Positions 20,333-38,208 of a stretch of 42,576 bases of DNA are shown in pieces. Position numbers and translations under genes: made by a program. The stretch comes from a virus (Duplodnaviria > Caudoviricetes). A model generated the notes under the pieces. That model was not told the DNA's origin. It did not search any database and was given only the letters and a program-made list of their open reading frames with translations. How positions within the stretch are numbered: position 1 is the stretch's first letter; every line of letters begins with the position of its first letter. The stretch covers positions 1-42,576 of the IMG/VR virus record IMGVR_UViG_3300032272_000029; one strand, 5' to 3'.

Positions 20333-23074
20333 CTATGGTCTGAACCCACCTGGGTGCCCGGTAGCGCTGCCGTCCTGAGTGAACGTCCTCTTGCCGCGGG
20401 CAGGTTCTTCAGGAAGGAGGGAAGCCGCCTTCTTAAAGATGTCCTGCATGGTTCCCTTGATCTGAGCTCGGTTCTCTTCTACGTCGATCTCATGCTGGAT
20501 CATTCCGATAGCCTGCTCGTCGGTACCAAAGTTCTGGCGACGGACCTCCATAGCCTTCAGCTTCTCAAACCACCTCTGGCTCGTCTCCCGCTTGCCGTTG
20601 ACCTTAGCCTTGCGGCCCTCAGAGAAGAAGGCTGGGTCTAGGTCCCGCACGTTCTTCCTAGCAAAAGCCCACGCGCCTTTGGCAACTTTCAGGTCTCTAG
20701 CCTTAGCCTTGGAGACCTTGCCGAACTCACGCTGCTCTTGCTGGGCCGCGCGCATAGCAACCTTCAGCCGAGTCTGGGCTGTGTCCAGGCTAGCTCTAGC
20801 TCTGACCGGGTTGTGCTTCAGGGAGTTACGGCGGTATCCCTGGGTGCCGCCAGTCTCAACGGCTGGGAGAGACCTAGCAAACTCTGTGTCAGCCTCGAAG
20901 ATGACAAGCCTAAGCGCATCCTTGCGCTCGCCACCTTCCATGTAATGGTCCTTGCCGTTGCGGATGTAACTTCCGTCCGCTCTGAAGTACGCAGTCCTTG
21001 GCTCCTGGCCCTCAATCTGGACAGTACCCAACCAGTACTTGCTGTCTCCAGACCCGTACGAGACCATGTCGAATTCGTTCTCACGAACTCCCGAGTTCAT
21101 CATGGAGTTGTACTGGTCGAACATTTGGAACTCAGCGTAAGCAGCCAGGCCTTCGACGGCATTCATCGGGTTAGTCGTGCGGGCCCTGAACGTGTTGTTC
21201 TTCTGGGTCAACCCAAAGAAGGTTGCTATGCCTAGCGTGTCTGCGTCTTCCCGCATCTTGCTGGGAGCCGAGAAGCCGGTCATAGGGCCAAAGAGCTCCT
21301 GCGGTCCGCGGCGTTCTGACCACTTATCCAGCGTCTTCTGCAGGGCTAGCTCAGCGTCTCCGTTAGCTACCGGAATCATTGCCCTGTAGGCCTGAACGAA
21401 AGCCTCTTCCTCTTGGAGTATCTCCTGCGTCTGAGGGAGATCCTCTACCTTGATGTCGAACCCGAGGGTGTTGAAGAAGTCACCCGTGCGCGCGACGATT
21501 CCAGCGAACGCTTCCTTCGCCTTCGTCCTGCCCGCACCCTCGTCCTGGTCGTCACCCTTCTCCTCCTGGAACCAACCCTCAAGGAAGTCTGGAGAGGTGC
21601 TCTTGAAGAAGGCCTCTGTTGAGGTCGGTACGTCACCCTTGATGTCTACGTCGTCAACCACGCCTGTATCGCGACCGACCTGGTTAGCTTTCTCCTGGCC
21701 CTTTGACCCACCAGGGAGGTTAGCCTCACCTCGAGGTCGACTTCGCTTTTGATTCTGGGCCTCACGCCGGGTGCGCATCTTCTCGGAAACTCGGTCGCGG
21801 ACACTACCGGCAAGGCGCTCCAGCTTAGGGTCTCCTGATATCTCCCAGGAGGTAATCATGTCCCGGAACTCGTCAACCTGGATAAGGCTGCCGTAGTTGG
21901 GGGCCTGCCTGATCATGTAGTCAGCAGCCGCCCGCGGGTTCTGCTTCCTCTCCAGCCAAGAACTGTCGCTCGACTGCAGCATGTTGATACCGCTGAAGTC
22001 TGTGACTGGGCTAGCCGTCTCTGACCCACGGATAAGCTCCCTCGCGTGGTCCAGGGCCCTCACCTGACTCTCTGCTGCGTGATTAGCCGCGACCATGGCG
22101 TCATCCATGGAGTCGAGGACTTCCTCACTCAGGGTGCCTGACCTCGCGAATTCCTGAGAGGATTCCCGGCGTGCCTTAGCGCTCTCGTAGAGGGCTCGGT
22201 AATCTCCGCCAGCGTCCCTGATCTGATCCTCGGTCAGCTTGCTGTCATTGACGGCCATGGAGTGCTTCTCTGCCGCAGTCCTCTTGAAGATCCGGGTGTC
22301 TTGCGCTCGCTTAGCCTCCAGCCACACAGGATCGAGGCCCTCAGCTAGGGGACTCTTGTACAGGGCGCCAACGCCACCTGGGTTCACGGCTCTAGTGGAA
22401 GCCACCGCGTCTGAGAACAGCTGCTGCTGAAACTTCTGGGAGACCTCGTCACGCTGGTCTGGGGTGGTCAGGTGCGGGCTGCCCTGAATGCGGCTCTTGG
22501 CTGCCTCGAGAGTCGACATGAAGACGCCAACCGGGTCTCCCCCGTCAGCCCGGATTGCGTCTGCATCGCTAACGCCGGTATCTATGGACGTGGTGAGTTC
22601 TGCATCTAGGGTGGCTAGGCCGTGCTGGAGACGGCGCTTCCTGCGAACGGACCCCAGGCGAAGGCCGAAGATTCCGGACTCCTTCAACTGGTGGTTCTCT
22701 AGCTCTGCCCGGTCACGCTCACTAAGGTTCGCCCCACCCGAGATCTCGTCTATCTCAGTGACGCCGCGCTCCTCGAGACCGTCATCCCACTCAGTGTCAG
22801 ACCACTGGTCGACGGGAGCATCCTCTGCCTCCGCAAGAATCGCCTGCCTAGCGAGGGTCATTTTGACCTTAGCCTTGCCGAGCTCTGCGCTGGAGTTGGC
22901 CTTGTCTCGCTCCTCCCGAGCTCTCTCCTCTGCGGCATGCTGCTTGTGGAAAGCCTCACCCACCTGCTCGAGACCCCTGGCCACAGTATCCGGAGTCTCG
23001 ACCACGGCACTGGGGAGTTGCCCTGGGAGCTGTGCGCTCGGTAGGTTACTTCTCCGGATATTGATGCTAGGCAC
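20333..23074 (-). CDS. Internal virion protein, gp15-like position
   Basis: 913 aa, helical; N-terminus MPSI...VARGLEQVGEAF; synteny. Confidence 0.75.
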   Translation of the reverse strand: MPSINIRRSNLPSAQLPGQLPSAVVETPDTVARGLEQVGEAFHKQHAAEERAREERDKANSSAELGKAKVKMTLARQAILAEAEDAPVDQWSDTEWDDGLEERGVTEIDEISGGANLSERDRAELENHQLKESGIFGLRLGSVRRKRRLQHGLATLDAELTTSIDTGVSDADAIRADGGDPVGVFMSTLEAAKSRIQGSPHLTTPDQRDEVSQKFQQQLFSDAVASTRAVNPGGVGALYKSPLAEGLDPVWLEAKRAQDTRIFKRTAAEKHSMAVNDSKLTEDQIRDAGGDYRALYESAKARRESSQEFARSGTLSEEVLDSMDDAMVAANHAAESQVRALDHARELIRGSETASPVTDFSGINMLQSSDSSWLERKQNPRAAADYMIRQAPNYGSLIQVDEFRDMITSWEISGDPKLERLAGSVRDRVSEKMRTRREAQNQKRSRPRGEANLPGGSKGQEKANQVGRDTGVVDDVDIKGDVPTSTEAFFKSTSPDFLEGWFQEEKGDDQDEGAGRTKAKEAFAGIVARTGDFFNTLGFDIKVEDLPQTQEILQEEEAFVQAYRAMIPVANGDAELALQKTLDKWSERRGPQELFGPMTGFSAPSKMREDADTLGIATFFGLTQKNNTFRARTTNPMNAVEGLAAYAEFQMFDQYNSMMNSGVRENEFDMVSYGSGDSKYWLGTVQIEGQEPRTAYFRADGSYIRNGKDHYMEGGERKDALRLVIFEADTEFARSLPAVETGGTQGYRRNSLKHNPVRARASLDTAQTRLKVAMRAAQQEQREFGKVSKAKARDLKVAKGAWAFARKNVRDLDPAFFSEGRKAKVNGKRETSQRWFEKLKAMEVRRQNFGTDEQAIGMIQHEIDVEENRAQIKGTMQDIFKKAASLLPEEPARGKRTFTQDGSATGHPGGFRP

Positions 23075-23098
23075 GACTACTCCTTAAATGACTGTTGG

Positions 23099-23761
23099 CT
23101 AACCACCACCACCGCCGCCGCCCCCACCACCTGAGCCACCGCCGCCACTGCCTCCGCCACCCCCAGAGATGCCGGATAGGCTGGGTCCCTTACCCTTGCC
23201 GCCCTGAGGCTTAAGGCCTTGCTGCCCCATACCCTGGCTTCCACCGATCTCGCCGAACTGGAGGTTTATCCCCTGGCCCAACTTGCCGGCCACGCTGAGG
23301 AGTGTCCCGATTCGCCCCATCTCAGCAGCCCGGTTAACCCGGTGAGCTCTCTTCCTGAGGCGGTCAGCTACCTGCTTGGCGCCCTGGAGAATGCGGCTCT
23401 CTTCCTCGAACGAGTTGGAGAAGGTCTCCAGTATAACCTCACTTGCGGTGAGACTGTGAACCCCTACACCGGCAGCACCAAAGGAAGCCTTCTGTGAGGC
23501 CGCTAGGCGCGCCGCTCTTCGACGAGAGTCCTCTGCCGCCTGTCTCCCTATCTCCTCGGTCCTGTTCGCGTCCTCGCGCAGCTCACGAGCTGTGGCGCGT
23601 GCCTCGTCCTCTGCGTTGATTGCACGGATCACGTCAGCGCTAGCATCGAAGAAGGCCCCGATGTCGAAACTACCACCGGTAATCCCCTGGGCGCCGCCGC
23701 TACCCCCGCCGGTGCTACCGCCGCCGCCGAATAAACTCCCAACGTCGTCGAAGAATCCCAC
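23099..23761 (-). CDS. Internal virion protein, gp14-like, with Gly-rich termini
   Basis: QKASFGAAGV motif; synteny after tail tubular B. Confidence 0.75.
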   Translation of the reverse strand: MGFFDDVGSLFGGGGSTGGGSGGAQGITGGSFDIGAFFDASADVIRAINAEDEARATARELREDANRTEEIGRQAAEDSRRRAARLAASQKASFGAAGVGVHSLTASEVILETFSNSFEEESRILQGAKQVADRLRKRAHRVNRAAEMGRIGTLLSVAGKLGQGINLQFGEIGGSQGMGQQGLKPQGGKGKGPSLSGISGGGGGSGGGGSGGGGGGGGGG

Positions 23762-23771
23762 TGGTTACCTC

Positions 23772-26465
23772 CTAATCCTCTAGCCTGACATCCACGGCTA
23801 CTGCCAGGACGCGGAAGGGGAACGGCTCTGTCTGTGTGATAGTCACAGTGGCCTCCTCCCCCTTATTGTGGTGGGCCGTCTCCCCGAGCTCCCAGTTGCT
23901 GCTCAGAGTGTGAGCCGTGCCTACGGTGTAGTTACCCAGCTTACCCTTGCCGTTGAGCTTCCCGCCAGCGGACTTGTCCAGAAGGACGTAGCCCTTGCGG
24001 ACGTTCTTGACCCTGCTGGCCTGATCCCCGTGCCGGTCGTTCTCCGCCAGGGTCTGCATCTTCAGCTCGAACGGGATCTCTAGGCCCAGAGAGAGCTCCG
24101 TGTTGACCGTCAGCGTGCCCAGGTCAAAACTACCTGTCGCGTCCAGGACCTTGGTCCCGTGGTAGACACCGTCAGCCATCATGTGGACCGTCTGAGAAGC
24201 CAGGGAGGCAACAGTCACCTGACCCGTCAGCGGCATGCCCGTGGTCACAGACACAGAGCTGTCCAGCTTCATGCCTGTATCGAATGTCTCTATCCGCATG
24301 GTCTTCACGCCCGCAGAGTCAGTCCGCTCCACGATAGCCCACAGCTGATCGTCCAGCCCGGTCCTGCGTACTGCCAGGATGCTTTTGAACACCGGTTCAC
24401 CTGTCCCCGTCCACGGAGACCAGCCGACAACACTGGCCTCTTTGCGGTAGGACAGAGCACACAGGCTCCCGTCCGTGCGGAGAGCGATAACCATAGGATC
24501 AGGGTCTCGCAGCATGACTAGCTGGGTGATGGGGTTGCCCTGGAACAGCTCCGGGTTCAGGTTCGTCAGCGTCAGAGGGGTGTACCTGTCCCGCTCAAAT
24601 CGGAACCCGATCTCTCTAAGCTCAGTACCGGTTCTGTTCACGAAAAGCGCACTGCCCCCCGCGAGGACCGGCTGAACTCCCGAGCTTCCGCTTGTCCCTT
24701 GTCTGTCTGCACCTATGCTGGTGGGAGTAATTGGAGTACCTTTGATCACGAACTCTGAATTCTCGGTCCCTACCACTAAGTCTTGCATAGAGGCTAGCCA
24801 CTTAACAGCACCACCCTTGTCATCCCGGACGTTGATCACCATGGCGTCGTCGTCAGAGGCGCCAACGTTGAAGTTAGTGGGGAGCCCGCTACGACTGAGA
24901 GCCAGCGCGTCGGGATCACCCGAGAACCCACCCAAAACCAACCGCTCTTGGTGCATCGTGCAGGTCGAAGCGTAGGAAACTCCAAGCCCCGACTTACTCC
25001 ACGCCACCGTAGTGCCGAAGTGGTCCAGCCCCGCAGCACCCACAGTCACGTAGACGCAGTACCAAGGGACACCACCGCCAGGATAGCCTGGTCCGAACCC
25101 TGTGATGGTAACCTGACCACCGTTGAGGTTCACGGTCACGTTGTTGTCGATGTCTGACTGGGTGAAGATCTTCGCCTCGAGTGTCGTTGGGTCGCTAGTA
25201 GCTACGTTCGCATGAGACGCCGAGAGAAGAACCCCAGCCTCGTTAGCGGTGTCGTCGTTAATAGACAGGGCGATCTGGTTGGTGCTACCCAGGTTCTCTG
25301 ACTCGCGGTCTTTCAGGTACGCATGGTGACTCTTGTTCACGTACACGATGCCGTGCTTGATGTGGGTGCCACCCTCACCCGACACAAGCATGCAGAACGC
25401 GCTACTCCACTTGCCGTTGCCCTGTAGGGTACCTGCTAGGCCAAGGATAAGAACCCTGGGGGTAGTCCTCGCGTTGTTGTTCGTGTACCCGATCGTCATA
25501 ACGGTGCCGATATGGTAGGGCTCGAAGTACCCGATCTGACCTGCATTGTCCCAGTTAACGCTCGTGCGGTTCTCCACTGCGATTATCTCGTGGACCTTCT
25601 CACGGCTGAGGTTGTCCCCGATAGCGACTGAGCCACTCTCAAAGTCACGGACGACGAACTGCGGGGAGCTGCTAGAGCCTAGAGGACCTGCGTTGTTCTC
25701 TGCCGGCATGGTCCCGCTGTCGTAGATCCAGGGGCCACACCAGTTCTTGTCTGCCGGGAAAGAGAAGGCGCTGGTGGATACGTCGAAGCTAGCCTTCTGA
25801 CATTCGACCTCCTCAGGGCTAAAGTCGATAGCTGTGGTGATAAGGAAGTCCAGCCCGTCCACCCGCCAGAACGAAGCCTTGTGGTATTCGTCCGTGTCAG
25901 GGGAGACCGAGTCCGTCTGCACGTCCGACGAGTTAAACAGGGTGTCCACGCTAGACTCGAGCCGGGTAGTCCCGCTCAGCTTAGATAGCTCTGCCTGCTT
26001 AAGGTCCAGCCCGATAGTAGGCGCAACCCCAGCATCGCCCAGGTTGCGGAACGTTATCGTGGAGGGGGTGAAAGTCACCACCTGGGTGTCGAGCGCGTTG
26101 TGCGTCATGAACAGGGTGTCGGGAGTCTGCGTGTAGTGAGCCTCCTGCGCCTGCTGCAGCGTGTACGGAGACGTGGTGCTGGCAATAGACATGACCCCGT
26201 CTATCCACGCACGAACGATACCCTCTCCGAACTCAAGGACGAACCTGCCGATCTCGTCAATGTGCACGTCCACCAGGGCGCCGCCGGTAGTGCTTAAGGA
26301 TGTCGACTTGTACTCAGAGCCCAAACGCTTGAACGGCTCACCGGCCCTGCCGATAGTCCCGTTCTTGAACGAGGGAGAACCCTGCCTGAAGATGTCAGAG
26401 TCCGACTGCCCACGAAGAGACGACCCCAGTTCCCCGCTAGCAAAGCTCTTCTGGACTATCCTCAT
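23772..26465 (-). CDS. Tail tubular protein B (nozzle)
   Basis: QKSFASGELG N-terminus, HQERLVLGG, LVVGTENSEF, VVGWSPW, QTEPFPFRVLA. Confidence 0.9.
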   Translation of the reverse strand: MRIVQKSFASGELGSSLRGQSDSDIFRQGSPSFKNGTIGRAGEPFKRLGSEYKSTSLSTTGGALVDVHIDEIGRFVLEFGEGIVRAWIDGVMSIASTTSPYTLQQAQEAHYTQTPDTLFMTHNALDTQVVTFTPSTITFRNLGDAGVAPTIGLDLKQAELSKLSGTTRLESSVDTLFNSSDVQTDSVSPDTDEYHKASFWRVDGLDFLITTAIDFSPEEVECQKASFDVSTSAFSFPADKNWCGPWIYDSGTMPAENNAGPLGSSSSPQFVVRDFESGSVAIGDNLSREKVHEIIAVENRTSVNWDNAGQIGYFEPYHIGTVMTIGYTNNNARTTPRVLILGLAGTLQGNGKWSSAFCMLVSGEGGTHIKHGIVYVNKSHHAYLKDRESENLGSTNQIALSINDDTANEAGVLLSASHANVATSDPTTLEAKIFTQSDIDNNVTVNLNGGQVTITGFGPGYPGGGVPWYCVYVTVGAAGLDHFGTTVAWSKSGLGVSYASTCTMHQERLVLGGFSGDPDALALSRSGLPTNFNVGASDDDAMVINVRDDKGGAVKWLASMQDLVVGTENSEFVIKGTPITPTSIGADRQGTSGSSGVQPVLAGGSALFVNRTGTELREIGFRFERDRYTPLTLTNLNPELFQGNPITQLVMLRDPDPMVIALRTDGSLCALSYRKEASVVGWSPWTGTGEPVFKSILAVRRTGLDDQLWAIVERTDSAGVKTMRIETFDTGMKLDSSVSVTTGMPLTGQVTVASLASQTVHMMADGVYHGTKVLDATGSFDLGTLTVNTELSLGLEIPFELKMQTLAENDRHGDQASRVKNVRKGYVLLDKSAGGKLNGKGKLGNYTVGTAHTLSSNWELGETAHHNKGEEATVTITQTEPFPFRVLAVAVDVRLED

Positions 26466-29400
26466 TTAGTGGCTCCAGCTAGGGCCCTGGCCCCGCATTT
26501 CGTCAATAATTGACTGGTCGTCGAACACCTCAGCAAACTGCTCCTGACCGTCACTACCCTTGGCCGCAGCGATAGCGTCAAACATGTCCTGGCGCAGGAG
26601 GGCGATACCTTCGTTAGACATACCCACCGATTCCGACAACTGCTCGTAGGCAATAACCAGAGCAAGAGCCTTGGCCATTTGGGCGCTAATGATGTGCGTG
26701 TCCAGAATGTCGGAGATAAACATCACGTTAGGCGTGCTCGTCTGCACGGTCAGAAGGACCTGCTTCTTAAGGGCGCGGTCTCCCTGCACCTTCCAGTGAA
26801 CGTCTCCACCGCGGTTCTCTGTGCCGTCTACGGTCAGAACCCGAAGCGCGCAGTCTGGGATTGTCCAGGCGGCGGCCCAGTTGCCTGGCGTAGCTGCTCC
26901 AGTTGCGGTGACAAAGTCCTCCTCGAGGTTGCAGCAGTTCCACGAGTGGTCCATGACAAACGCCTTGCGGGTGACGTTCCAGTTTTCTCGGATCAGGATG
27001 CTGTACTCGTCCTGCTCGTCGGTTGATGTCAACGCTCCTGGAAGTCCTACGCGGCGCATAGCCCAGTTCCAGATGTCGTAGACACAGATAGCTTCGCATA
27101 CCACTAGACCACAACTTTCTTCTGCGGGGGGACTCGCGTCGGCGAAGTTCACAACTACACGCAGGTTCGACGCAACCACGCTGGGGTGAACTACAGGAGA
27201 AGCGAAATTGACTTGTACGCTGGGCGCCTGAGCGAACACGTTCACTGTCGGACTCGGCCCAGTGCTCACGCTAGGCGCAGGCCTGGAGCTACCACTGATA
27301 GCCCCAACGCTGAGGGCGTCAACAGTCGTGACGAGGTAGGGCTTGGCCGTGTTGAAGTTGGACCCAACGCTTAGCGTGTTGTTCGAGGTGAACACGTTGA
27401 TTGGGAATAGGTAGGTCGGCGCCACATCCGCAGCGGTGAACTCCGCGAGACTGTCGTCGTCCCATGCGCGACCCCGAACGAACACGCTAGATAGAGCGCT
27501 CTTCGCCTCGTAGGCGCCAACTGAAGGAGTCGCCGTGGTGTACACGAGGTCGTCCAGGTCTCGTAGGAGGACTAGATCTGCAGCCCCAGAGTCAGAAGCA
27601 ACAGACGCACGGTCGGGACCATGAAGTGGCCCGGTAGTGACTGGCCTGAAGTCTCCGTTGTCCGGGTCCAGCACCAGGTCAGTGATAGCGTCGACACCAG
27701 CAGCTGCGGTCCAGTTGGTCCCGTAGTTTGTGGCGGCGCTGTCCCCGTAGTGGTTGCTGTCCACAAGTCGGTTGCCACTTGGGAGGTCACTTCCGATAGT
27801 GACCCTGCGGTGGAAGCAGTTATTACGGATGTCTATGTTGTCGAACGTGGCTGTTGTGGCTCGGTCAATGCTGTAGTCGTGGTTCAGCATCGTGTTGTGC
27901 TGGAACACCAGGTCGGTCATGGTCGCTGAGTTTAACCCAGGTATGTTTGACCCCGTGTCAGGGACATAGCTCTTCGTGTGGCTAAGGTTCCCCACCACCG
28001 ACAGGGCTACGAAGTCAGTTGTCTCCCCTGAAGAGTCGTCTGCCATGAGCAACACGCAGTGCCCGTTGGTATCAAAAACTCGGTTCGAGTAGATCCCGCC
28101 ATTAGTGGACGTTACGCCCGACAAATTGAACCCAACGAAATGCCCTACGTCGTCTGTCGTCCAAGAGGAGCCCACCGTCCCGAGGTTGCCAACGCCAGTT
28201 GCCTCGTTATTGGCGATCAGGTACCCGTCCCGAGGGTTACTCACAACGAACTCATGAACCTCAGTGATGGTGTTGTTGACCATCAACTTGATAGCCCCGT
28301 CAGAGACCGCGGCGCAGTCATGGATGTGGCTGTTCGTTATGTAGATATCATCCCACCCAGTATCGCTTAGGTCGTACCCCGTAAGCTTGAACAGGTGGTA
28401 GAGGTCAGAGGCGTGCTCAATGTTACCGCCAGACGTAAGCCTGCAGTTATGGAACCAGGCCTTCGTGTCCTGGTTTGCGCCCGTGTCGCCCTTCTTGACG
28501 GCCTGCTGCCCCTCAAAGTCGATGTTCTCGAACTTGATTAGGCGGCTACCAACACCCTCGCCAACGCTGGTGATTTTGGCCCTGGAGTAGTTAGGGTCTG
28601 TCCTGACAATGATGTGGTGGTTGTCGTTCTCGCTAGCGGTTATCGCCGAGACCCCACCCTCGTTCTCTAGGACGTTATTGTCCCCACGAATATTAATTAT
28701 CATCCCTGATCGGTCGTTGCCAGCCCTAGCGTTCACCGCCGTAATTATCTGCTGGTAGGGATCTGAGGTCCCGCCGGTATCGCCGTCACTCCCGTTATCA
28801 AAGTCGACCCAGTACTCTACCAGGGTGTCCTGCTCGTTAACGTCGAACCAGTAGTCCGCCGAGATCACGATCGGGACACCGTTGTAAGGCATAATGGTCG
28901 CCTCAATGGTGTACCCAGCGCTACCACCAAACTGGCCAGGCTCTGTGTTGATCCCCACGTTGTAGTCGTAGATGCCCGAGGTTGCGTTGTACGTCGGCTC
29001 GTAGATAGAGACGCCCTGAGACAGGTCTGTGCGCTCGCAAGAGAACACGACCCGCTCTACGCCCCCTGGGCAGCTAGCCTTGACCCCAATCCTCACAGAA
29101 CCGTCTGTTATCCGCGCGTGCTCTGGGATAGTGAAGGACGCGGTCATGGTCGCATCGTTGAAGTTCTGAACGTTCGTAGTCCCGTTATACGGGCCCGTAG
29201 TGACGGCTGCTGGTGTGGGCATAGGCCCGCCGGCGCCTATCGTTAGCAAGCCGGAGCCGTCAGCGCTAGGCTCTATGCGGCTACTTCCAACAGACAGCGC
29301 CTCAGCATAAACGTGAGGCTGCAGGACTGGTGCCAGGGACGGGAAGTTAGAGGCTACGGCAAAGGGTTCCTCGTGAACCTTCTGGTAGCCCAAGGGGCCC

Positions 29401-31613
29401 TGGATAACCTCGAAAGCACAAAGGGAAACCCCGTCCGTGTGAGTGACACTGAGGTCCGTGAGAACTATCTCTAGACTTCCACCCACCACTGTACAGTCAG
29501 CCTTGGCGACCACTGCGGTGTTTAGCCCACCAGCCCTCGAGAAGATGTCGATCACACCAGTGTCGCCCGCGGTGACTCCCTCGACTGCGGCGCTAAACCT
29601 ACGGTACCCACGAGACGCAAACGTGTCCTCTTCAGCGAAGTGGAATATTACGTGAATGGGCATGTTGTGCATGTTTATGACCGTGTACTTCAGCTGCGTC
29701 TTCGGGTTAGTGGTCCTACCGTTCTGGTAGATCTGCTCTGGGTAGTCACCGGTACCTGAGATAGAGTTAGCGTTCGAGAAAATGCTACCCTCAAAGCCTG
29801 CGTCTAGACTAACCCCATAAAGAATCCCAGCGATAGCGCTAGTGTCTCCAACCCAAATCACATCAAGGCTTGGGTGCGGGGCCAGGGGGATTAGAGTGTC
29901 AGCCGTGCCACACATAACCCTAACAAGGGCTTCGCCGTTAGTCCTGGCCGACCCAGGGTTGAACTGCACGCTAAGGGGTTCCGCCTGAACTACCGTGTAG
30001 GGAGCGCCCTCTATCTGGCTGCTCGAGACGCTGAGCCCCTGGGCTAGAATCCCCACCGTGGGCAAGGCCTCTGTGAAGTTAACTCCGACAGATAGGGCCT
30101 CAACTACAGGGTACGGGTTCCTCTTCACCGTCGGGAAGTTCGTGGTTACCGAGATGGCCTCAGCGGTAACGTTCTGCACTACTACAGTCGAGATCTCTAG
30201 GGCGCTGGACGCCGGCACTGCGGCCCATGTGGTGATAGACGGGTTGTTCGCGGAGAGCGCACCGCACGCGATACCAGAGGCGCCGTTGTGGTCTTCCTCT
30301 AACCCCTGTGAGCCAGCAAGCCACCTGCGGAGGATCTGCTCCGTCGTGAGGGCCTTACTCTGGATGCTCATCTCGCAGATCCAACCCTGCATGGAGTCTG
30401 TGAAGGAGCCGTTCCTGTGAGCCGCGGCGATTGCAGTCTTGTAGTTTGTGTTAAGGGTGCAGGGGACACGGCCACCATAGTTGAAGTTGGTTATGTCCTC
30501 GTCTTTGCCATCAAGGACAAGCTTGATCTGGCCGAACCCACCGTTGTCGTCCGTACTGTACGTCAGCGCCCCGAGGTGCCACTCTCCAACGTCATAAGCG
30601 TTGGTGGACACCATCGTTGTAACCGCGGTGCTGTCAAAGAGCCTGCACCTAACCTTCAGTCCACCGTCAGTACGGAACCCGTACATGAACTCTACGTTGT
30701 TACCGCTAGTGTTCTGGTTCCGGGCAATCATCCTCGTCTGGTCGTTCTGGTTGTTCGTTAGGGTGATGTAGAACCACCCCATGTAGGTGAATCGCTCCTG
30801 GTCACCATAGTTGCCCGTACCGCAGTCTGCGTAGCTATCCGGAGATCCCGTGTTAGACACCTCCACGCAGGTGGTTGAACCAACGACAGCACCAGACTCA
30901 CCGGTTGTTTGGGCCACGTTGCCCCAGGTGCCGGTAAGGAGACCCGTGCTATCAACGATCTGTGGGTTGGAAGCTCCCTCTTGGCCGCGCCACCTAGCCA
31001 GGATCGTCGCGCTGTCGTTAGCTGTTATGTAGCTATCGAAGTCGTGTACCGTGGAGTTATCGAAGTCGAAGGCTGAGTACGCTGGGGTCGCGTAGGACTC
31101 GGGGGCTTTGACCCCGCTGTACAGGTTTAAAACGTCCGAACCTGACAACGCCTGCGTCCAGAACGCCGGGGCCGTGATAACCAGGTCGGAAAGGAAGTCT
31201 CCGGGGGTGTCGTCGTTATTAGCGCCGAACGTGAATGTGTTAGTGGTAGTGCTCCTGGCGGTCACAGTTACTGAGCTCGCCGTAGCCACACCGTCAAAGT
31301 AGATCGAGTATGTGGTGGAGTTCTCGGCAACGATAGCGACGTGATGGAACGTGTCGTCGGTCATTGCCGAGGCGCTACCGATGATAGATTCCTGGTAAGC
31401 CTCTATCTCCTCGGAAGCGTTGATCCGGATCTGTAGCTGCTGCGCTCCAGAGTTACCGATAGCGAATACAACCTCGCCACCGCTGTTGGTCGTAGAAGAC
31501 CCCACGCGGTGAACCCAGAACGTGATGCTGAACTGGTTGGCATACCACCTAGCGTCAGAGGTTGTGCTCCGCAGGTACTCGTCTGTATTTGATGCCGAAA
31601 ACTTACGAGACAT
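26466..31613 (-). CDS. Multidomain fibre/adhesin (LamG x2, malectin-like, Ig-like, beta-helix) fused to C-terminal tail tubular protein A
   Basis: LamG motifs (FSITFW...FHHVAI...IYFDG; WHLGALTY); malectin-like (IYQNGR...IFHFAE...GYRRF...DIFSRAGG...AFEVI); beta-helix (YWVDFDNGSD...GDFRP...VGAYE); C-terminal adaptor (DIWNWAMRRVG...HSWNC...WTIPDCALRV). Confidence 0.85.
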   Translation of the reverse strand: MSRKFSASNTDEYLRSTTSDARWYANQFSITFWVHRVGSSTTNSGGEVVFAIGNSGAQQLQIRINASEEIEAYQESIIGSASAMTDDTFHHVAIVAENSTTYSIYFDGVATASSVTVTARSTTTNTFTFGANNDDTPGDFLSDLVITAPAFWTQALSGSDVLNLYSGVKAPESYATPAYSAFDFDNSTVHDFDSYITANDSATILARWRGQEGASNPQIVDSTGLLTGTWGNVAQTTGESGAVVGSTTCVEVSNTGSPDSYADCGTGNYGDQERFTYMGWFYITLTNNQNDQTRMIARNQNTSGNNVEFMYGFRTDGGLKVRCRLFDSTAVTTMVSTNAYDVGEWHLGALTYSTDDNGGFGQIKLVLDGKDEDITNFNYGGRVPCTLNTNYKTAIAAAHRNGSFTDSMQGWICEMSIQSKALTTEQILRRWLAGSQGLEEDHNGASGIACGALSANNPSITTWAAVPASSALEISTVVVQNVTAEAISVTTNFPTVKRNPYPVVEALSVGVNFTEALPTVGILAQGLSVSSSQIEGAPYTVVQAEPLSVQFNPGSARTNGEALVRVMCGTADTLIPLAPHPSLDVIWVGDTSAIAGILYGVSLDAGFEGSIFSNANSISGTGDYPEQIYQNGRTTNPKTQLKYTVINMHNMPIHVIFHFAEEDTFASRGYRRFSAAVEGVTAGDTGVIDIFSRAGGLNTAVVAKADCTVVGGSLEIVLTDLSVTHTDGVSLCAFEVIQGPLGYQKVHEEPFAVASNFPSLAPVLQPHVYAEALSVGSSRIEPSADGSGLLTIGAGGPMPTPAAVTTGPYNGTTNVQNFNDATMTASFTIPEHARITDGSVRIGVKASCPGGVERVVFSCERTDLSQGVSIYEPTYNATSGIYDYNVGINTEPGQFGGSAGYTIEATIMPYNGVPIVISADYWFDVNEQDTLVEYWVDFDNGSDGDTGGTSDPYQQIITAVNARAGNDRSGMIINIRGDNNVLENEGGVSAITASENDNHHIIVRTDPNYSRAKITSVGEGVGSRLIKFENIDFEGQQAVKKGDTGANQDTKAWFHNCRLTSGGNIEHASDLYHLFKLTGYDLSDTGWDDIYITNSHIHDCAAVSDGAIKLMVNNTITEVHEFVVSNPRDGYLIANNEATGVGNLGTVGSSWTTDDVGHFVGFNLSGVTSTNGGIYSNRVFDTNGHCVLLMADDSSGETTDFVALSVVGNLSHTKSYVPDTGSNIPGLNSATMTDLVFQHNTMLNHDYSIDRATTATFDNIDIRNNCFHRRVTIGSDLPSGNRLVDSNHYGDSAATNYGTNWTAAAGVDAITDLVLDPDNGDFRPVTTGPLHGPDRASVASDSGAADLVLLRDLDDLVYTTATPSVGAYEAKSALSSVFVRGRAWDDDSLAEFTAADVAPTYLFPINVFTSNNTLSVGSNFNTAKPYLVTTVDALSVGAISGSSRPAPSVSTGPSPTVNVFAQAPSVQVNFASPVVHPSVVASNLRVVVNFADASPPAEESCGLVVCEAICVYDIWNWAMRRVGLPGALTSTDEQDEYSILIRENWNVTRKAFVMDHSWNCCNLEEDFVTATGAATPGNWAAAWTIPDCALRVLTVDGTENRGGDVHWKVQGDRALKKQVLLTVQTSTPNVMFISDILDTHIISAQMAKALALVIAYEQLSESVGMSNEGIALLRQDMFDAIAAAKGSDGQEQFAEVFDDQSIIDEMRGQGPSWSH

Positions 31614-31648
31614 CCGCGGAGCCCTCCCCCTCTATGACGGTCTGATTC

Positions 31649-32161
31649 TTAGGCAGCGTAGCTGTGTGCGAAGTCGAACAGGATTCCACCGGAGAACGAA
31701 ATCACGTAGTCGTTGCCGTTCGTGACTGTCGGCGTGTTGAAGCGAATCCAGGCGATACAGTTGTCGCTGGTCTTGTTAATGAGTACGCAGCCAGAGAGGG
31801 TTTCCTCTCCTGTGGGGAGTCCGGTAAGGCCTGAGTAGGTCAGGGTAGATCCTACATTCAGCTTGAAGTCGAACGTATCCTCGGTTGCGTGGTCCGCAGC
31901 TGTGATAACGCCCGTGCCTGTTGTCAGGGTACTCGCAATGTCCTCGCCGCCAGCCGTGTACCCACCCGACGTATTGAACTCTTTGCCGCCAGCAGTAAGG
32001 GAGGCCGCTGTGTCGTAGCCGCCAGCACCGGCGTCTAGGTCAGCCTCGACCAACTCCGTGGCCCCGATAAGCGCCACCTTGTGGACATCCGAAGACCAGT
32101 CCTGGTCAACGGTGTTGAAGATGTTCGCCAAGCCCTTGGAGAACAAGTTAGAAACAGACAT
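31649..32161 (-). CDS. Virion structural protein (fibre/collar-associated)
   Basis: DWSSDVHKVAL...GGYTAGG...GCVLIN...TNGNDYVISF motif set typical of phage structural modules. Confidence 0.75.
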   Translation of the reverse strand: MSVSNLFSKGLANIFNTVDQDWSSDVHKVALIGATELVEADLDAGAGGYDTAASLTAGGKEFNTSGGYTAGGEDIASTLTTGTGVITAADHATEDTFDFKLNVGSTLTYSGLTGLPTGEETLSGCVLINKTSDNCIAWIRFNTPTVTNGNDYVISFSGGILFDFAHSYAA

Positions 32162-32197
32162 CCTTCACCTTCCTTCAGGGCGAGGAACGCCCTCTCT

Positions 32198-32689
32198 CTA
32201 AACAGATGCGACTGACGGAATCTTGTAAGCCCTCACCATGAGCGTAATGATGTTTGTGCCCGTAGTAGAAGCGCCGCCCGTCAAACTCGCGACCCTGATG
32301 AAAACTTTCTGGGCTACGTCCGCGTAACCCTTCGTTGACTGGGGACCGAAACTCATCGCGTTCCCAAGGTCATTCTTGTTAGCGTCAAACGACGTAACAA
32401 AGTTCTGGTAGTCACCGAGGACGCCCACCTCCATGGTGCAGGTAGACCCCGCCGGCTTCTCTGTGCAGTGGATAAACCCCTCCGCGACCACATAGCCGGA
32501 AGGGATCGTCAGCATTTCAATCACGTTGCCCAGAGCTATGCCTGCCTCCGGTACCGTGTAGGCCGCCATGAACACCCGCGCCCCGAGCTTTGTGTGAACC
32601 CTATCACCGAAAGAGTCCACCGACGTAGCCACGGGGTCCGCAACGATCGACGAAGAAGGTCCAGCGATCAGGAGCGGAATCAGGGGCAT
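32198..32689 (-). CDS. Decoration-like beta-sandwich protein, paralog of 34056-34466
   Basis: GNVIEMLTIPSGYVVAEGFI vs GDDVELFTIPAGSVVIAGFL; start ATG at 32689. Confidence 0.7.
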   Translation of the reverse strand: MPLIPLLIAGPSSSIVADPVATSVDSFGDRVHTKLGARVFMAAYTVPEAGIALGNVIEMLTIPSGYVVAEGFIHCTEKPAGSTCTMEVGVLGDYQNFVTSFDANKNDLGNAMSFGPQSTKGYADVAQKVFIRVASLTGGASTTGTNIITLMVRAYKIPSVASV

Positions 32690-32690
32690 G

Positions 32691-33980
32691 TTACGGCGAC
32701 TCCTCCCAGTTGATGCAGCCCTGGATATCTGCGTCCGCATTCAGCGGTCTCACGCACAGGACTAGCTCGTCTACGGTCGCGTCTATCGCGGCACCCAGGA
32801 GAAGGTCGCTGCCTGCTAGCTTTATCGTCGCAACACTCAGCGATCCGTACCCGCGGGCGATTACAGTCCCGCCGGTCACAGTGTTAGCCGTGGCGCCAGT
32901 AGCAAACTGGCAAGCCGAGTTCGTCAGGTTCCCATAGGTGAACGTGCTCGCAACTGTCGGGTTATGGATCAGCTGCAGCTCGTAGCTATCGGAGAGCTCC
33001 GTCATGCCAGACACCTCGGTGACCTTGACAGTTGCTCCGAGGTGCGTGGACTTCAGACGAATCCCGACAAGGGCGTAAACAGTGTCGGCTACGGCGGCGT
33101 CAACGTGTGCGGTAGTTCCTGCAGAGAAGGGTATGCTGGTGCGGGTCCCACCCTCGGACATGACAGTCGCGGAAATCGCGCGCATGCTGTTCACACCGGA
33201 GGAGGAGGTCGTGATGAGCTGTACCCTCAACGGTAGGTTGGGGGTAGAGGACCACGGGGTCGTATCTGAATTGGCTTGGCTGAACTCGTGGACGTACCAC
33301 AGGTGCCCGTCAATCTCGAGGCCCATGCGAATGCGACCCGTAGGCCACTGGTAGTCCATGACGAAGACCTGAACCTTGGTCCAGTCTACGGTGAGCCCGC
33401 TGGGGTTTTCTGCGTCAGCGCCGCCATCCATGACGTCGAGGTTCCAGGACACCTGTGCAACCGTGGTATCCACAGGAGTACCCGTATCGTTACTCCTGAT
33501 GGTAACGCCCACGGTGCCCGCGCTGGACTCGAAGAACACGCCGTTGTCATCGTCGAACAGCCCGAACCTGCGCTCACAGCCAGTCGTGACGCCCGAGGCT
33601 AACTCGAGGACGCCAGTGAGCATGGCCAGTTGGCTCTTTCCCGGCTGGTAGTTGAACCTACGGAAGGTCTGCCGCGTAAGCGTAGTGGCTGTGACGTTGG
33701 TGCTAGCCAGGTCAATGTAGGGCTTGGCCGCGGTGGGTGTGCTGAAGCTTCCACCGGAACCTGACTCCTCTGACTCGTCCCAGAGTAGCGGGCCGTCGTC
33801 AGCGCCTAGCAGCTTGGAATCGAATACCGTCTCGGGGTTGGATACCCGCCAGCGACCGAACGCATCTACCGAAGCAGAGTCTTGTTCGCCCTCAACGAGA
33901 ACCCTCTGGAACTTTACGCCGCCGCGATCGTCTGCGGCATACACTTCGCCAGTACCCGGAAGGGTGGTGTTGTCTGCCAT
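32691..33980 (-). CDS. Conserved virion protein (429 aa, beta-rich)
   Basis: MADNTTLPGTGE...DD-x-GGV..QRV N-terminus; DAFGR-x-RVSNP, YQPGKSQL, R-x-G-x-FDD-x-NG-x-FFE motifs. Confidence 0.8.
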   Translation of the reverse strand: MADNTTLPGTGEVYAADDRGGVKFQRVLVEGEQDSASVDAFGRWRVSNPETVFDSKLLGADDGPLLWDESEESGSGGSFSTPTAAKPYIDLASTNVTATTLTRQTFRRFNYQPGKSQLAMLTGVLELASGVTTGCERRFGLFDDDNGVFFESSAGTVGVTIRSNDTGTPVDTTVAQVSWNLDVMDGGADAENPSGLTVDWTKVQVFVMDYQWPTGRIRMGLEIDGHLWYVHEFSQANSDTTPWSSTPNLPLRVQLITTSSSGVNSMRAISATVMSEGGTRTSIPFSAGTTAHVDAAVADTVYALVGIRLKSTHLGATVKVTEVSGMTELSDSYELQLIHNPTVASTFTYGNLTNSACQFATGATANTVTGGTVIARGYGSLSVATIKLAGSDLLLGAAIDATVDELVLCVRPLNADADIQGCINWEESP

Positions 33981-33995
33981 GTTGGTCTCCCTTCA

Positions 33996-34045
33996 GAGAA
34001 ACTGGCCGGGGCGGCACTGAGAACGGGGGGCGCCGCCCCTTCCAG
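33996..34045 (-). terminator. Hairpin/terminator after the capsid and decoration genes
   Basis: On the minus strand ggggcggcgc...gtgccgcccc, followed by tttctct. Confidence 0.55.
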
Positions 34046-34055
34046 ATTGCTTTGT

Positions 34056-34466
34056 TTACACGTTAGGCAAGTTGAGGACCAGGAGCCCTACGGTAATGCG
34101 AGCCCCGTTGGTGACAGTGGTCACCGCGTCAAAGGTCAGCACGACCGTGGTTTCAGCCGTCGCCCGTGCGTCAGTCTGCTCAAGCAACGTGCACCCTGCG
34201 GTTCCACAAGGGATCGCGCTAAAGAAGGCGTCATCGTCTGAGCTTGTTCCAACGTCACAAGTCACAGTGCCACCGCAGTCCTCGCGGTCGAGGAATCCTG
34301 CGATCACGACTGACCCTGCTGGGATCGTAAACAGCTCTACGTCGTCCCCGATAGTGTCGATGTCATCGGTGTCGATTGTGTAGGTAGCTGTGTGCCAGAT
34401 CGGGGTAGCTTGAACGGTGTACTGGTTGAACGTAGCCGCACGAGCGTCCGCTTGGTATGTCGTCAT
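34056..34466 (-). CDS. Capsid decoration/cement-like protein
   Basis: Directly after the major capsid gene; SD aaggaggt; beta-sandwich pattern. Confidence 0.75.
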   Translation of the reverse strand: MTTYQADARAATFNQYTVQATPIWHTATYTIDTDDIDTIGDDVELFTIPAGSVVIAGFLDREDCGGTVTCDVGTSSDDDAFFSAIPCGTAGCTLLEQTDARATAETTVVLTFDAVTTVTNGARITVGLLVLNLPNV

Positions 34467-34481
34467 GATTTACCTCCTTTC

Positions 34482-35399
34482 TTAGCTAGTAGGAACAGGC
34501 GTGTCGTCAGTGAAGTCCTGGCGAACAACCTGGTCGTCGTGGATTCGAGCAGCAGCACAGAGGCCGTACACTGCAAGCTGAAGGCCGTGCTGGCGGTCAG
34601 TTGCAACGTCGAGCTCTACAGCGATATCAGCACCGTCGTCACCGTGCACCATAGCGGTGTCCGGGAACATGTAGGCGTCACGGTCCGTACCTGCGTTATC
34701 CAGGCCGGTTCCGATATTCGTCCAGGTGAACTCGATACCCATCCAGGACGGGAGGTCGCCGTTGATCATGGACTTCATGTTCACAAAGTCCGTGCTCGTT
34801 AGGCGGTTGCCCAGGTTGGCGTCTGAGGCCTGCATGAGATCGTTCTGCATCTGGTAGGTACCGATGAAGTAGATCTTCTGGCCGTTATTGACAGCCTCAG
34901 CCTTCTGAAGCAGAAGCTTCATATCCATGATAGCCGCGGGGGTGATTACCGCTGGATCTGCAGGCGCGTCATGAGCGGTGATAATATTGCTCGCGACCGT
35001 ACCATTCTTGCCCGAGTAGGCAGTCCCGGCCAGAGCAGCCGTGAACGTGATGTCCTTCTGGCGCTTGAAGCCAGCGTGGACAGCTTTGAGCATCTGGGAA
35101 TCCGGCTCGAGGGCGCGCTGCAGGTGCAGCATGTCCTTGCGAGGGAAGATCTCAGTGTACTCGTAATCGTCCTCGACGATCATCCTGCGCGAACGCGGAA
35201 TCTCTTGGGGGACGTTGGGTTGGTTGCGTTGGGTGACCTTCGTGAGTACGACCTTGCCGTACACGTCGAAGAACGTCTTTTCACCAAGGAGGGGCTCGTG
35301 AGTACCGAGCATATCGGTGTCTGAGTCCAGCTGCTGCGACAGGAGCCGCAGTTCTGAGGCCCACCCGACCTTGGCGACATTAAGCGCCTGAGAAGGCAT
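34482..35399 (-). CDS. Major capsid protein
   Basis: LLSQQLDS, RSRRM, AGFKRQKD, TSTDFVNMKSMINGDLPSWMGIEF, AARI-x-D-x-x-V; SD ggagg; synteny. Confidence 0.9.
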   Translation of the reverse strand: MPSQALNVAKVGWASELRLLSQQLDSDTDMLGTHEPLLGEKTFFDVYGKVVLTKVTQRNQPNVPQEIPRSRRMIVEDDYEYTEIFPRKDMLHLQRALEPDSQMLKAVHAGFKRQKDITFTAALAGTAYSGKNGTVASNIITAHDAPADPAVITPAAIMDMKLLLQKAEAVNNGQKIYFIGTYQMQNDLMQASDANLGNRLTSTDFVNMKSMINGDLPSWMGIEFTWTNIGTGLDNAGTDRDAYMFPDTAMVHGDDGADIAVELDVATDRQHGLQLAVYGLCAAARIHDDQVVRQDFTDDTPVPTS

Positions 35400-35536
35400 A
35401 ATGCTTCCTCCAGTAAAAGTCTAAGGCTTCGACAGGAGGGATACCCGGCGCTCCGGGGGCTCCTTGGATCTCGGGGCCCTCCGAAGAGGGGGAGGCCAAG
35501 GTCAGGTGGTTTAGTTTAGGACCGAACGGGCCCTAG

Positions 35537-36280: not shown

Positions 36281-36569
36281 GTTTGATTGACTCCTGTCTG
36301 CCCAATTCACACTTCGATTCGATGATGGTGTAAGCCATTTGAAGTCCCACTGCGATGCCGAGCACCTGCGGGTCTATCGACCTAACCAACGTCCCGTCCT
36401 CACTGACTAGTGCCGTCTCCAACTGACAAAGATCCTCCTTGAGAAGGTCGAGCATTTGGTTGTCTCGTCCCACTACGAGAGTGTCGTAGTAGTACTGGTT
36501 CCTGGAACCAACAACCTCGTCGATCTCCTTGGCGATCTTGTCCGAGTCGAAGAACTCATCATGCGCCAG
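36267..36569 (-). CDS. Small conserved protein between portal and scaffold; probable CTG start
   Basis: Frame is open 32 codons upstream of the tracked GTG; GGAGG lies 9 nt before the CTG at 36569. Confidence 0.6.
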   Translation of the reverse strand: MAHDEFFDSDKIAKEIDEVVGSRNQYYYDTLVVGRDNQMLDLLKEDLCQLETALVSEDGTLVRSIDPQVLGIAVGLQMAYTIIESKCELGRQESIKHDRS

Positions 36570-38208
36570 CTTGTGCCCCCTCCACTTGCGCTACGTCCTT
36601 TGCCGCAGACGCAGCTTGCTGGATTTGGTCGAGCTGCTGCTGACGTGCCGCGGCAGCTGCCCGAGCTTCCCGTACTTCTAACATTTCCTCTTCGGTGTTC
36701 AGGATCTCTGCCGGCACGTTTCCTGCCCGCGCGTAGTAGGCCGAGATCTTGTCCGGGCTAACCCGGTCCATGTATTCCTGATTCTCCGTCTCGAGAGCCA
36801 TGACACGCAGCCGATCCAGGTAGGCGTCAACCTGACCCAGGTCACCCTGGTTCTGCGCCGTGAAGAACGGAGACACGAACCGGATCTCGAACTTGGCGCC
36901 TGGCACCTGCTCTGCGATCAGGTCGAACTCCGGGAGCTCGCCGGCAGCCTGCATGGTGGAGGCAACGTTCTCGATAATGGGAGAGAGCGCGTGGAACACA
37001 GCGTCTGCGTCTCCACCCATGCGGCGTAACCCGCGGACCTCACGCAGGGCGGACTCCTGAGCCGAACGCGGCTGAGTGTCCGGGTTGGAGATCACGTCGG
37101 CCATGAGGGCCTTGCGGATAGCCTCCTGCTCGTTCTGTCGAATCGCGTGGGTCGCAGCGAAGTCCGTCCGGGACTCCAGGTACTCAGGCCGGGAGTGGGT
37201 CGGGTTCTTGATCACGATCGCGCCACCGGAGCCGCCACTGAGGGTCTTGGGCTCAATGGAGTTGGCGTCGTACATGAGCTTCGGGTTGGCGTTCTTGGCG
37301 ACCGCCACCAGCTCCTTGCCCTTCAGGGAGTTGGCTGCCTTCGTGTCTGGGCGGATAGCGTGCCCGTGCCCGTAACCGTAGGTGTGGTCCTGGGCGATCT
37401 TCAGGCGGGAGACAACGTAGGGGTTCCAGTCGAAACCCTCGAGCTCGCCGGCAAACTCAGGCCCGTCGTCACAGACCCAGACGGAGTGCCAGGCGCGGTC
37501 CTCAGGTAGCTTCAGCCCTCCTGGGATTCCATTCTCATTCTTGATAATGCAGTTGTAGTACTTGAACTTCCGGAAGAGCTCACCGTTCCCCATAGCATCC
37601 AGGACCCGCTTGCCCGGCTTGCCCTTGAAGAACTCGTAGGCGGCGCCCGCTGGGAGCGTGAACTCTCGGGTGGTCCAGATAGGCTGGTCGTCTATCCCGT
37701 AGGTCCACCACATGTCAAAGAACGGGACAGACTTGAAGTTCATCTTGCCGAAGGTGGAGCCGGTGCGAGGGTTCACCCGCTTGTGGATCTCCTGCCCGTA
37801 GCTGATTCCGTTCCCTGGGAGGATAAGATCCCTGAGGTAGGCCTCAAGCTGTAGGTAGAAGTTCGACTCGGAGAGAGCCCTCAGCACCTTGCTGGCGCCG
37901 CGGTCAAGCAGCTGTGTCACGAAGATGTCATCGCGAAGATCCTCGTGCGCCATGAAGTGAATCCATGACATTTGCGTGGGCGCGACCTGGCCCTTGATCC
38001 ATGAGATGAAGTCCTGAGCCGCACCGCCCGCAGTAGAATCGATCACCCCCTCAATTCGGGCTCCGCCCTCTGACTTGGTGGTAACGTCGCCTCGGAAGGG
38101 CATCATGAGAGACATGATATCCCGCCAGGCGCTCTCGTGTGGGGAACGCTCCGCCTGCTGCTCGCCTATGCGGTCCATGACCTCCGCTAGGGTTTTCCGC
38201 ATAGCCAT
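36559..38208 (-). CDS. Portal (head-tail connector) protein
   Basis: DSTAG, SNFYLQL, GFDWNPYVVSR, YGYGHG, FVSP; T7 gp8-like layout. Confidence 0.92.
   Translation of the reverse strand: MAMRKTLAEVMDRIGEQQAERSPHESAWRDIMSLMMPFRGDVTTKSEGGARIEGVIDSTAGGAAQDFISWIKGQVAPTQMSWIHFMAHEDLRDDIFVTQLLDRGASKVLRALSESNFYLQLEAYLRDLILPGNGISYGQEIHKRVNPRTGSTFGKMNFKSVPFFDMWWTYGIDDQPIWTTREFTLPAGAAYEFFKGKPGKRVLDAMGNGELFRKFKYYNCIIKNENGIPGGLKLPEDRAWHSVWVCDDGPEFAGELEGFDWNPYVVSRLKIAQDHTYGYGHGHAIRPDTKAANSLKGKELVAVAKNANPKLMYDANSIEPKTLSGGSGGAIVIKNPTHSRPEYLESRTDFAATHAIRQNEQEAIRKALMADVISNPDTQPRSAQESALREVRGLRRMGGDADAVFHALSPIIENVASTMQAAGELPEFDLIAEQVPGAKFEIRFVSPFFTAQNQGDLGQVDAYLDRLRVMALETENQEYMDRVSPDKISAYYARAGNVPAEILNTEEEMLEVREARAAAAARQQQLDQIQQAASAAKDVAQVEGAQAGA

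Follow-up and report, generated by a model that had tools for sequence, protein, structure and literature searches.

The locus described here raises the question of whether a tailed virus can build its glycan-directed fibres directly into the ring that joins portal and nozzle. The window, i.e. the whole 42,576-base stretch of the IMG/VR record IMGVR_UViG_3300032272_000029 (Duplodnaviria; Caudoviricetes), carries direct terminal repeats (CheckV estimate 78%), and on its minus strand one long gene, P0001, lies between the capsid and nozzle genes. The C-terminal domain of its product was identified as a tail adaptor by profile and model comparison, and the residues ahead of it in the same frame likely form a bead-on-rope arm. 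The main features are:

26466..31613, minus strand: fused arm-adaptor gene P0001, a single open frame of 1715 amino acids (aa), 182.8 kDa
26466..27089, minus strand: adaptor (tubular protein A, T7 gp11/Carin-1 connector fold), residues 1509-1715, 22.9 kDa, assigned by phrog_394, profile and AlphaFold2 (AF2) model
31622..31632, minus strand: strong Shine-Dalgarno (SD) site of the full-length P0001 start, anti-SD duplex -11.1 kcal/mol
23772..26465, minus strand: nozzle (tubular protein B), 897 aa, phrog_376 at an expectation value (E) of 2.6e-85

The original prediction had placed an adaptor in the last ~210 aa of the frame, which was borne out: residues 1512-1704 matched phrog_394 over profile positions 5-186 of 190 (E 1.8e-15), and a profile of 76 sequences matched the Carin-1 connector (8ck1_E) at E 1.3e-36 and also LME-1 orf17. 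The domain was modelled with AF2 in an alignment-based run (predicted local distance difference test, pLDDT, 90). The model, in which the helix bundle, the beta-dock domain and the C-terminal hook are present, was superposed on 8ck1_E (Z 19.0, root-mean-square deviation (rmsd) 4.2, 190 aligned), T7 gp11 6r21_N (Z 12.7, rmsd 3.7, 174 aligned), P22 gp4 (Z 9.1, rmsd 3.4, 103 aligned), LME-1 (Z 17.6) and PhiM1 gp52 (Z 13.0); phmmer against the PDB returned no match for the adaptor domain or for whole P0001. No other phrog_394 match was found in the window genome, in line with the predicted lack of a separate tubular protein A gene. As judged from these models, the C-terminal domain is a T7 gp11/Carin-1-type adaptor, present in single copy between the capsid and nozzle genes, and by analogy the P0001 adaptors likely form the usual dodecameric ring between portal and nozzle.

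Among cultured phages, HTVC010P-like pelagiphages have the nearest adaptors (~25% identity), and in four pelagiphage-type records inspected the adaptor gene is stand-alone. P0001 is not such a stand-alone gene of ~200 aa, its adaptor being part of a 1715-aa frame with no SD-led start near the domain. In one record (L002, MW202485.1), a phrog_394-type adaptor gene at 8980-9618 is labelled 'major capsid protein' in GenBank, a label which recurs in that record series.

The claim that adaptor and arm share one frame with its stop adjoining the tubular protein B start was likewise confirmed, the TAA of the P0001 gene abutting the nozzle ATG at 26465. Such a frame could also come from an error of assembly or from a stop codon lost only once. 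One 40,792-base Logan contig (depth 13.9) covers 22000-36000 with 0 differences and 0 gaps, so that the second assembly is identical base for base and no stop or frameshift appears near 27100, although the Logan run may be the source of the record, its agreement is in that case not independent, and the comparison is one of contigs. Because of this exact contig and of a colinear homologue from another assembly (P0002), a lost stop near the junction is very unlikely; with 54 of the 150 top relatives fused and open frames at 37 of 37 loci, the artefact is practically refuted.

Relatives were taken as the best 150 of 220 adaptor matches. At least 300 residues precede a C-terminal adaptor in 54 of these, 8 carry 60-299 residues ahead, a further 70 stand alone, and the other 18 are tandem or extended in another way. 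P0002 is a full-length homologue with 38% identity over 1743 columns and an identical domain order. Homologues with the same fusion, which the original prediction had proposed to look for, are thus at hand, and an earlier impression of 'no fused relatives', gained from single-protein locus searches (adaptor, portal, P0002) and word-index searches, was overturned by the 54. At 37 IMG/VR loci, retrieved by pattern from fused proteins, the frame upstream of the adaptor is open throughout (27 closed open reading frames (ORFs) with 610-1784 residues, 10 running off the contig), each locus has one adaptor match, and the nozzle gene is next in 34. All five records searched whole hold one adaptor copy. 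In a quick LG+G4 tree of 131 adaptor domains, all fused rows fall within an 82-row group, where P0001 belongs to a clade of seven members (support 99) and a separate clade holds 58 rows (97). A single origin of these two clades was not rejected (approximately unbiased test, p-AU 0.76), which is no proof of it; the partly fused P0012, P0043 and P0127 lie elsewhere in the tree and were left out of this test. From these comparisons the adaptor fusion is a conserved lineage trait.

Among the extended chains, two to about seven tandem adaptor domains were observed in P0006, P0023, P0040, P0046, P0060, P0063, P0070, P0072, P0076, P0080, P0082, P0087, P0094, P0112, P0118 and P0134. P0006 has five and P0080 six whole domains plus one split; some chains carry an insert inside the last domain, and P0063 has a C-terminal beta-helix and a carbohydrate-binding module. 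Such tandem adaptors could be pre-linked ring segments or stacked rings. In P0128 the fusion is reversed, an N-terminal adaptor being followed by ~570 residues with collagen-like and fibre-like repeats.

For the arm, P0001 was cut into 8 pieces and searched against Pfam; the domains, the last of them assigned from a protein language model, are:

31131..31565, minus strand: LamG-1 (PF13385), residues 17-161, 50 bits (cut-off 27.6)
30333..30839, minus strand: LamG-2 (PF13385), residues 259-427, 41.4 bits (cut-off 27.6)
29394..29921, minus strand: malectin-like domain (PF11721), Pfam match at residues 617-721, limits approximate, 24.9 bits (cut-off 23)
28839..29156, minus strand: probable immunoglobulin (Ig)-like domain, limits approximate, Big_7 at 18.3 bits (below the cut-off of 24.1)
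27489..28838, minus strand: probable right-handed beta-helix of the bacterial DUF1565/Pel9A-like type, protein language model (ESM) features at 0.95-0.96

The predicted domain list therefore held for both LamG domains and the malectin-like domain, all above cut-off; the Ig-like domain stayed below it, and the beta-helix is backed by the language model only. By ESM features, residues 925-1375 resemble the beta-helices of bacterial DUF1565, Pel9A-like and NosD proteins (0.95-0.96); they share 127-149 features with these, fewer than the 170 typical within one family, and by this measure the segment is a probable bacterial-type right-handed beta-helix. The LamG and malectin domains are predicted from their domain families to bind glycans. 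In the 53 other long fusions, Pfam gave LamG above cut-off in 7, alginate lyase above cut-off in 1 and weakly in another, and PKD weakly in 1; the majority were without any match.

Phage beta-helix depolymerases are usually trimers, and twelve is divisible by three, so the arms might trimerise as classical tailspikes and give four trimeric spikes from twelve subunits. This arrangement is very improbable: the beta-helix resembles bacterial DUF1565/Pel9A-type proteins, which are regarded as monomeric, the beta-helix piece gave no match to a phage spike family below E 0.35, and the ropes solved so far have been described as single chains with a coat of dimers.

The domains of P0001 are linked by ten repeat units of ~20 residues in three blocks, and a small gene lies just upstream:

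29925..30164, minus strand: repeat block A, four units (484, 504, 524, 544) with an exact 20-residue period, likely rope from its inferred role
29247..29372, minus strand: repeat block B, two units (748, 770), read from the sequence, likely rope
27114..27383, minus strand: repeat block C, four units (1411, 1431, 1461, 1481), likely rope
31649..32161, minus strand: candidate bead protein P0155, 170 aa, phrog_644 at E 8.5e-4, with a weak remote gp80-like link

The greedy best-ten motif score of P0001 was 14.4, against 5.2 +/- 0.7 (maximum 6.7) in 40 shuffles; the block B units went unscored in the leave-one-out test, in which starts two residues off were used. Periods of 20-24 residues or doubles of these predominate in the 54 fused proteins. 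Of 21 genes upstream of the fusion in relatives, 16 matched PF23140 (GP4 gp80), that of L042 from the window's own subclade included, and a profile of the sister upstream genes matched 8jou_a at E 5e-15. One sister upstream gene matched phrog_8123, the family of a 171-aa KPP25 gene that resembles A1002 gp41 in size and place. Because of the ~20-residue repeats and of the gp80-family genes just upstream in relatives, the arm is read, by analogy, as likely a bead-on-rope fibre of the GP4/VP1/A1002 kind that is anchored via the adaptor. At least two small bead-like paralogues were seen between capsid and fused gene in L006, L009, L014, L026 and L031, and many sister loci combine bead paralogues of the GP4 gp80 family (phrog_240) with others of the KPP25 171-aa family (phrog_8123); such pairs suggest two bead types per rope, as in A1002.

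Alternatively, the arms may be naked, flexible multi-domain chains, with the repeats serving as spacers and P0155 otherwise employed, e.g. in capsid decoration. Several results weigh in this direction and against the rope. P0155 has no PF23140 match, reached an hhalign probability of 2.5% against gp80, and scored only 8.5 bits against the sister bead profile. A repeat-unit profile from sisters, which was composition-driven and hence not discriminating, scored the P0001 linkers no better than shuffles and left the KPP25 and GP4 ropes undetected, and the P0001 motif did not reach threshold in P0002, P0003, P0011, P0013 or the KPP25 rope. That the P0001 linkers are likely rope is consequently argued from period, composition and gene context, not from homology. 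On the other side, P0155 has the place and size of the Pfam-confirmed gp80 genes in relatives, again including L042; its top two non-self matches among 14,303 ORFs were gp80-family members (69 such ORFs; E 0.06 and 0.23), a weak but specific ranking; and the 20-residue period fits the A1002 rope, with its 226 residues for 11 dimers. Naked arms are therefore held to be unlikely. A complex prediction of two P0155 copies with residues 480-525 (score 0.16, mark 0.32) was counted neither way.

The bead-on-rope reading also bears on the claim that the architecture was unrecognised, which was set aside: through its repeats and the gp80-family bead genes of its relatives, P0001 appears as a variant of the solved chain-like fibres of GP4 and A1002. 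According to the A1002 report (PMC13730344), gp80-like dimers augment the beta-strands of the rope, 11 dimers sitting on residues 243-468, and the rope is separately encoded in GP4 and fused to the half-nozzle in A1002. As in this Pseudomonas podophage (nozzle-rope gp39, gp40/gp41 dimers), P0001 has a likely rope of ~20-residue units N-terminal to a core tail protein and a globular (Ig-like) domain beyond it, and small gp80-like proteins are encoded next door in its relatives, with P0155 as the weakly supported candidate in the window. The A1002 rope, however, is set on a hexameric half-nozzle, with six fibres, 11 dimers, one block and one Ig domain, whereas that of P0001 would be set on a dodecameric adaptor, with three blocks and five cargo domains, and a nested start is found in relatives. 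In the Ralstonia podophage GP4, fibre I consists of gp80 dimers (PF23140, 8JOU), as known from the A1002 paper, Pfam and PDB titles; the relatives of P0001 are like it in having gp80-family genes directly upstream of the repeat protein within a podovirus structural operon. GP4 differs in that the rope is separately encoded, has five dimers per fibre and is held by an accessory collar on the adaptor, while the P0001 rope is covalent with the adaptor. The candidate GP4 rope is glycine-rich, and its repeat code differs from that of P0001. The neck-fibre beads of A-1(L) had been considered as repeat binders and were rejected, these beads being gp81 trimers, and the adaptor of PhiXacm4-11 is of the ordinary kind.

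With the T7 gp11, Carin-1 connector and HTVC010P-like tubular protein A family (phrog_394), P0001 shares the fold, the position between capsid and nozzle and the single copy; the cultured examples inspected are all stand-alone proteins of ~180-215 aa, whereas ~1,500 residues lie ahead of the P0001 domain. In phi29 and N4, twelve neck appendages, which are separate trimeric proteins, are docked on the ring. P0001 is like these in having many glycan-directed appendages on a twelve-fold neck and unlike them in that the arm is part of the ring subunit. For N4, the appendages are named as gp66 in a published abstract.

How many arms a ring would carry depends on the junction, at which the sister lineages have a nested start. 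At 37 of 37 loci, ATG, GTG or TTG occupies position -5, five codons ahead of the conserved IWN motif, and 33 of these have an SD duplex of -6 kcal/mol or better before it (-5.8 in the other four). As background, a start codon with SD occurs at 116 of 34,153 codons (0.34%) in the same genes. The position of the nested codon roughly coincides with the start of stand-alone adaptors (offset 5-7 for 32 of the 55 that were parsed). In the 24 distinct junctions, each of the 12 valines is encoded by GTG and each of the 9 leucines by TTG, codons whose usage in these genes is 27% and 17%, respectively. Kinship among loci inflates these counts; at 70% identity the 37 loci form 10 clusters (median pair 46%). 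Since 10 clusters are represented and the nested SD falls in three frame registers, behind differing amino acids, the pattern argues for a nested start under selection as a DNA signal and not for a recent relic. A second pattern gave 26 loci, of which 10 were repeats of earlier contigs, 7 were new with ATG and SD, one (L144) had GTG and GGAGG, and 8 were without adaptor.

Sister phages are therefore predicted from sequence to translate bare adaptors from the nested start, giving mixed rings of armed and bare subunits. The nested start would also account for some adaptors being listed as stand-alone in databases: the 'stand-alone' entries P0010 and P0018 start at the nested codon and fall into the same 90% clusters as proteins of 468 and 1439 aa. 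Phage genes with two products are known from T7 gp10A/10B and SPP1 gp17.1/17.1* (frameshift extensions) and from T7 gp4A/4B and lambda C/Nu3 (internal starts). As in these, one frame would give a long and a short product, and the frameshift cases display an extra domain on some subunits. Here, unlike there, the optional part is N-terminal, comprises 600-1,800 residues and belongs to the adaptor ring, and its presence would be governed by a nested SD.

The window and its closest relatives have a different junction:

27084..27113, minus strand: cysteine motif C1501-x4-C1506-x3-C1510, with I1509 (ATC, 27087-27089) at the place of the sister nested start

The -5 codon of P0001 is ATC without SD (-2.8), and the nearby GTG1504 has -2.1, while 10 of 11 window genes tested have an SD duplex of -5.6 or better. 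L042 of the same subclade has GTA (duplex -3.0) and likewise no nested start. All seven subclade proteins carry C-x4/6-C-x3-C at the junction together with an invariant beta-dock cysteine (C1588), and their -5 residues are I, I, I, I, T, V and V; Ile or Thr in five of them excludes ATG, GTG and TTG there. Patterns for the cysteine motif returned 7 viral and 88 metagenome DNA matches, among which the only adaptor at the pattern was that of the window's own record, so that no new subclade locus was gained.

With a single adaptor gene and no internal start in P0001, up to twelve arms are likely in the window phage, unless cleavage or an odd start gives bare subunits. The predicted figure of up to twelve arms is thus likely for this phage but not lineage-wide, since most relatives, as read from their sequences, carry the nested start. 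Bare adaptors might still be made from ATC1509 or GTG1504 without SD, leaving perhaps five or six arms. In sister lineages the homologous codon has been kept as a nested start, which suggests a need for bare subunits, and ATC is possible as a rare start (table 11). Neither codon, however, has an SD, while the real genes of the phage have strong ones, and both the varied -5 residues of the subclade and GTA in L042 speak against a kept start; such initiation is quite unlikely. Proteolysis near the junction could also give bare adaptors at some or all positions, with the arm perhaps held by the junction cysteines. C1501, C1506, C1510 and C1588 are invariant in the seven subclade proteins in which the nested start is missing, and N-terminal trimming has been suggested for A1002 gp41 (PMC13730344). 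No conserved cleavage motif was evident in the junctions, though, and no protease domain was found in P0001; cleavage is judged decidedly unlikely.

An adaptor ring with single-chain, bead-coated arms whose number is set at translation is the explanation favoured, with modest confidence. Twelve adaptor domains would form the ring between portal and nozzle, each trailing one single-chain arm. P0155 dimers would coat the three blocks of ~20-residue repeats, adding beta-strands to each repeat as solved in A1002, and the glycan-binding domains would be spaced along the arm. The coating would stiffen the linkers to an arm of ~45-50 nm, estimated from five domains and 10 units, each unit taken as ~27 Å by scaling from A1002. 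The phage would first attach to polysaccharide on the host surface through its LamG, malectin and beta-helix domains, the last of which perhaps also cleaves this polysaccharide, and ejection would then be handled by nozzle and internal virion proteins. In sisters, the nested SD and start codon would let armed and bare subunits share a ring; in the window phage, ATC without SD and the cysteine motif would leave all twelve subunits armed, and the junction cysteines may staple the arm base by disulfides or metal. The predicted mass of the crown is 12 x 183 kDa, to which beads on all ten units would add ~4.2 MDa. The fuller version, in which a large group of uncultured podoviruses controls arm number by translation and the window's subclade has a cysteine staple in place of the nested signal and a twelve-arm, bead-stiffened crown of ~6 MDa with five glycan-directed domains per arm, is put forward more tentatively, as a serious possibility.

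Further points tell against this explanation in its parts. The fit of twelve arms on the ring and the exit of the adaptor N-terminus are assumed; the DNA-level reading of the cysteine subclade covers two genes; and the 37 loci, having been retrieved by pattern, give no unbiased frequency. The beta-helix piece had no Pfam match and no NCBIfam match, and with no catalytic residues identified its role as a depolymerase is putative.

Other virion genes of the window are the following:

32691..33980, minus strand: accessory virion protein, 429 aa, phrog_1645 at E 1.8e-70
34482..35399, minus strand: major capsid protein, PF19821, phrog_3437
36559..38208, minus strand: portal, PF12236 at E 1.1e-55

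On the minus strand, terminase, portal, scaffold, capsid, four accessory genes, the P0001 gene, the nozzle and three internal virion genes were annotated; the plus strand holds RecT, a lambda-type exonuclease, DnaB and a cytosine methylase. In T7-like phages the fibre gene follows the last internal virion gene. No long ORF was found past that point in the window, and among 47 window ORFs scanned none besides P0001 and the nozzle matched a tail-family PHROG. In the L042 genome the internal virion genes are followed by a 621-aa gene of a tail family, separate from the fusion, and the fused arm is therefore not always the sole fibre. A 2343-aa gene follows the last internal virion gene in a sister genome (L139:4860-11888, G004). 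PF03906 (T7 fibre N-terminus) matched in none of 6 records, nor in any control, and was hence uninformative. The small accessory genes at 34056-34466 and 32198-32689 are weakly alike (22 bits), one with a weak phrog_8455 match, and are probably decoration proteins. At its end, the first internal virion gene has a long run of glycine and serine (23099-23200), to which unrelated contigs align. A pattern scan of GTDB gave 8 matches, among them 1 adaptor-bearing contig, L144, with an adaptor at 1-597 (GGAGG and GTG at the contig end) and a nozzle that reached 211 bits against that of the window, the best non-self score; its Anaerolineae bin (binning unverified) is a weak host clue.

No description of an adaptor-rope fusion or of a nested adaptor start was found in searches of the open-licence PMC and bioRxiv literature. 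The system is best described as a variant of the bead-on-rope fibre that is anchored on the adaptor and carries a cargo of several domains, and would be a third anchor type for these recently solved fibres. Host recognition would have moved from separate trimeric fibres onto the adaptor, usually seen as a fixed 200-residue ring, whose N-terminus in dozens of lineages is extended by 600-2,200 residues of variable cargo (LamG, alginate-lyase-like, PKD, beta-helix). The nested start would provide a testable control of fibre number on a twelve-fold ring, with the cysteine subclade as a natural contrast, and receptor-binding proteins are the likely products of the long 'hypothetical' genes that precede the nozzle gene in environmental podoviruses.

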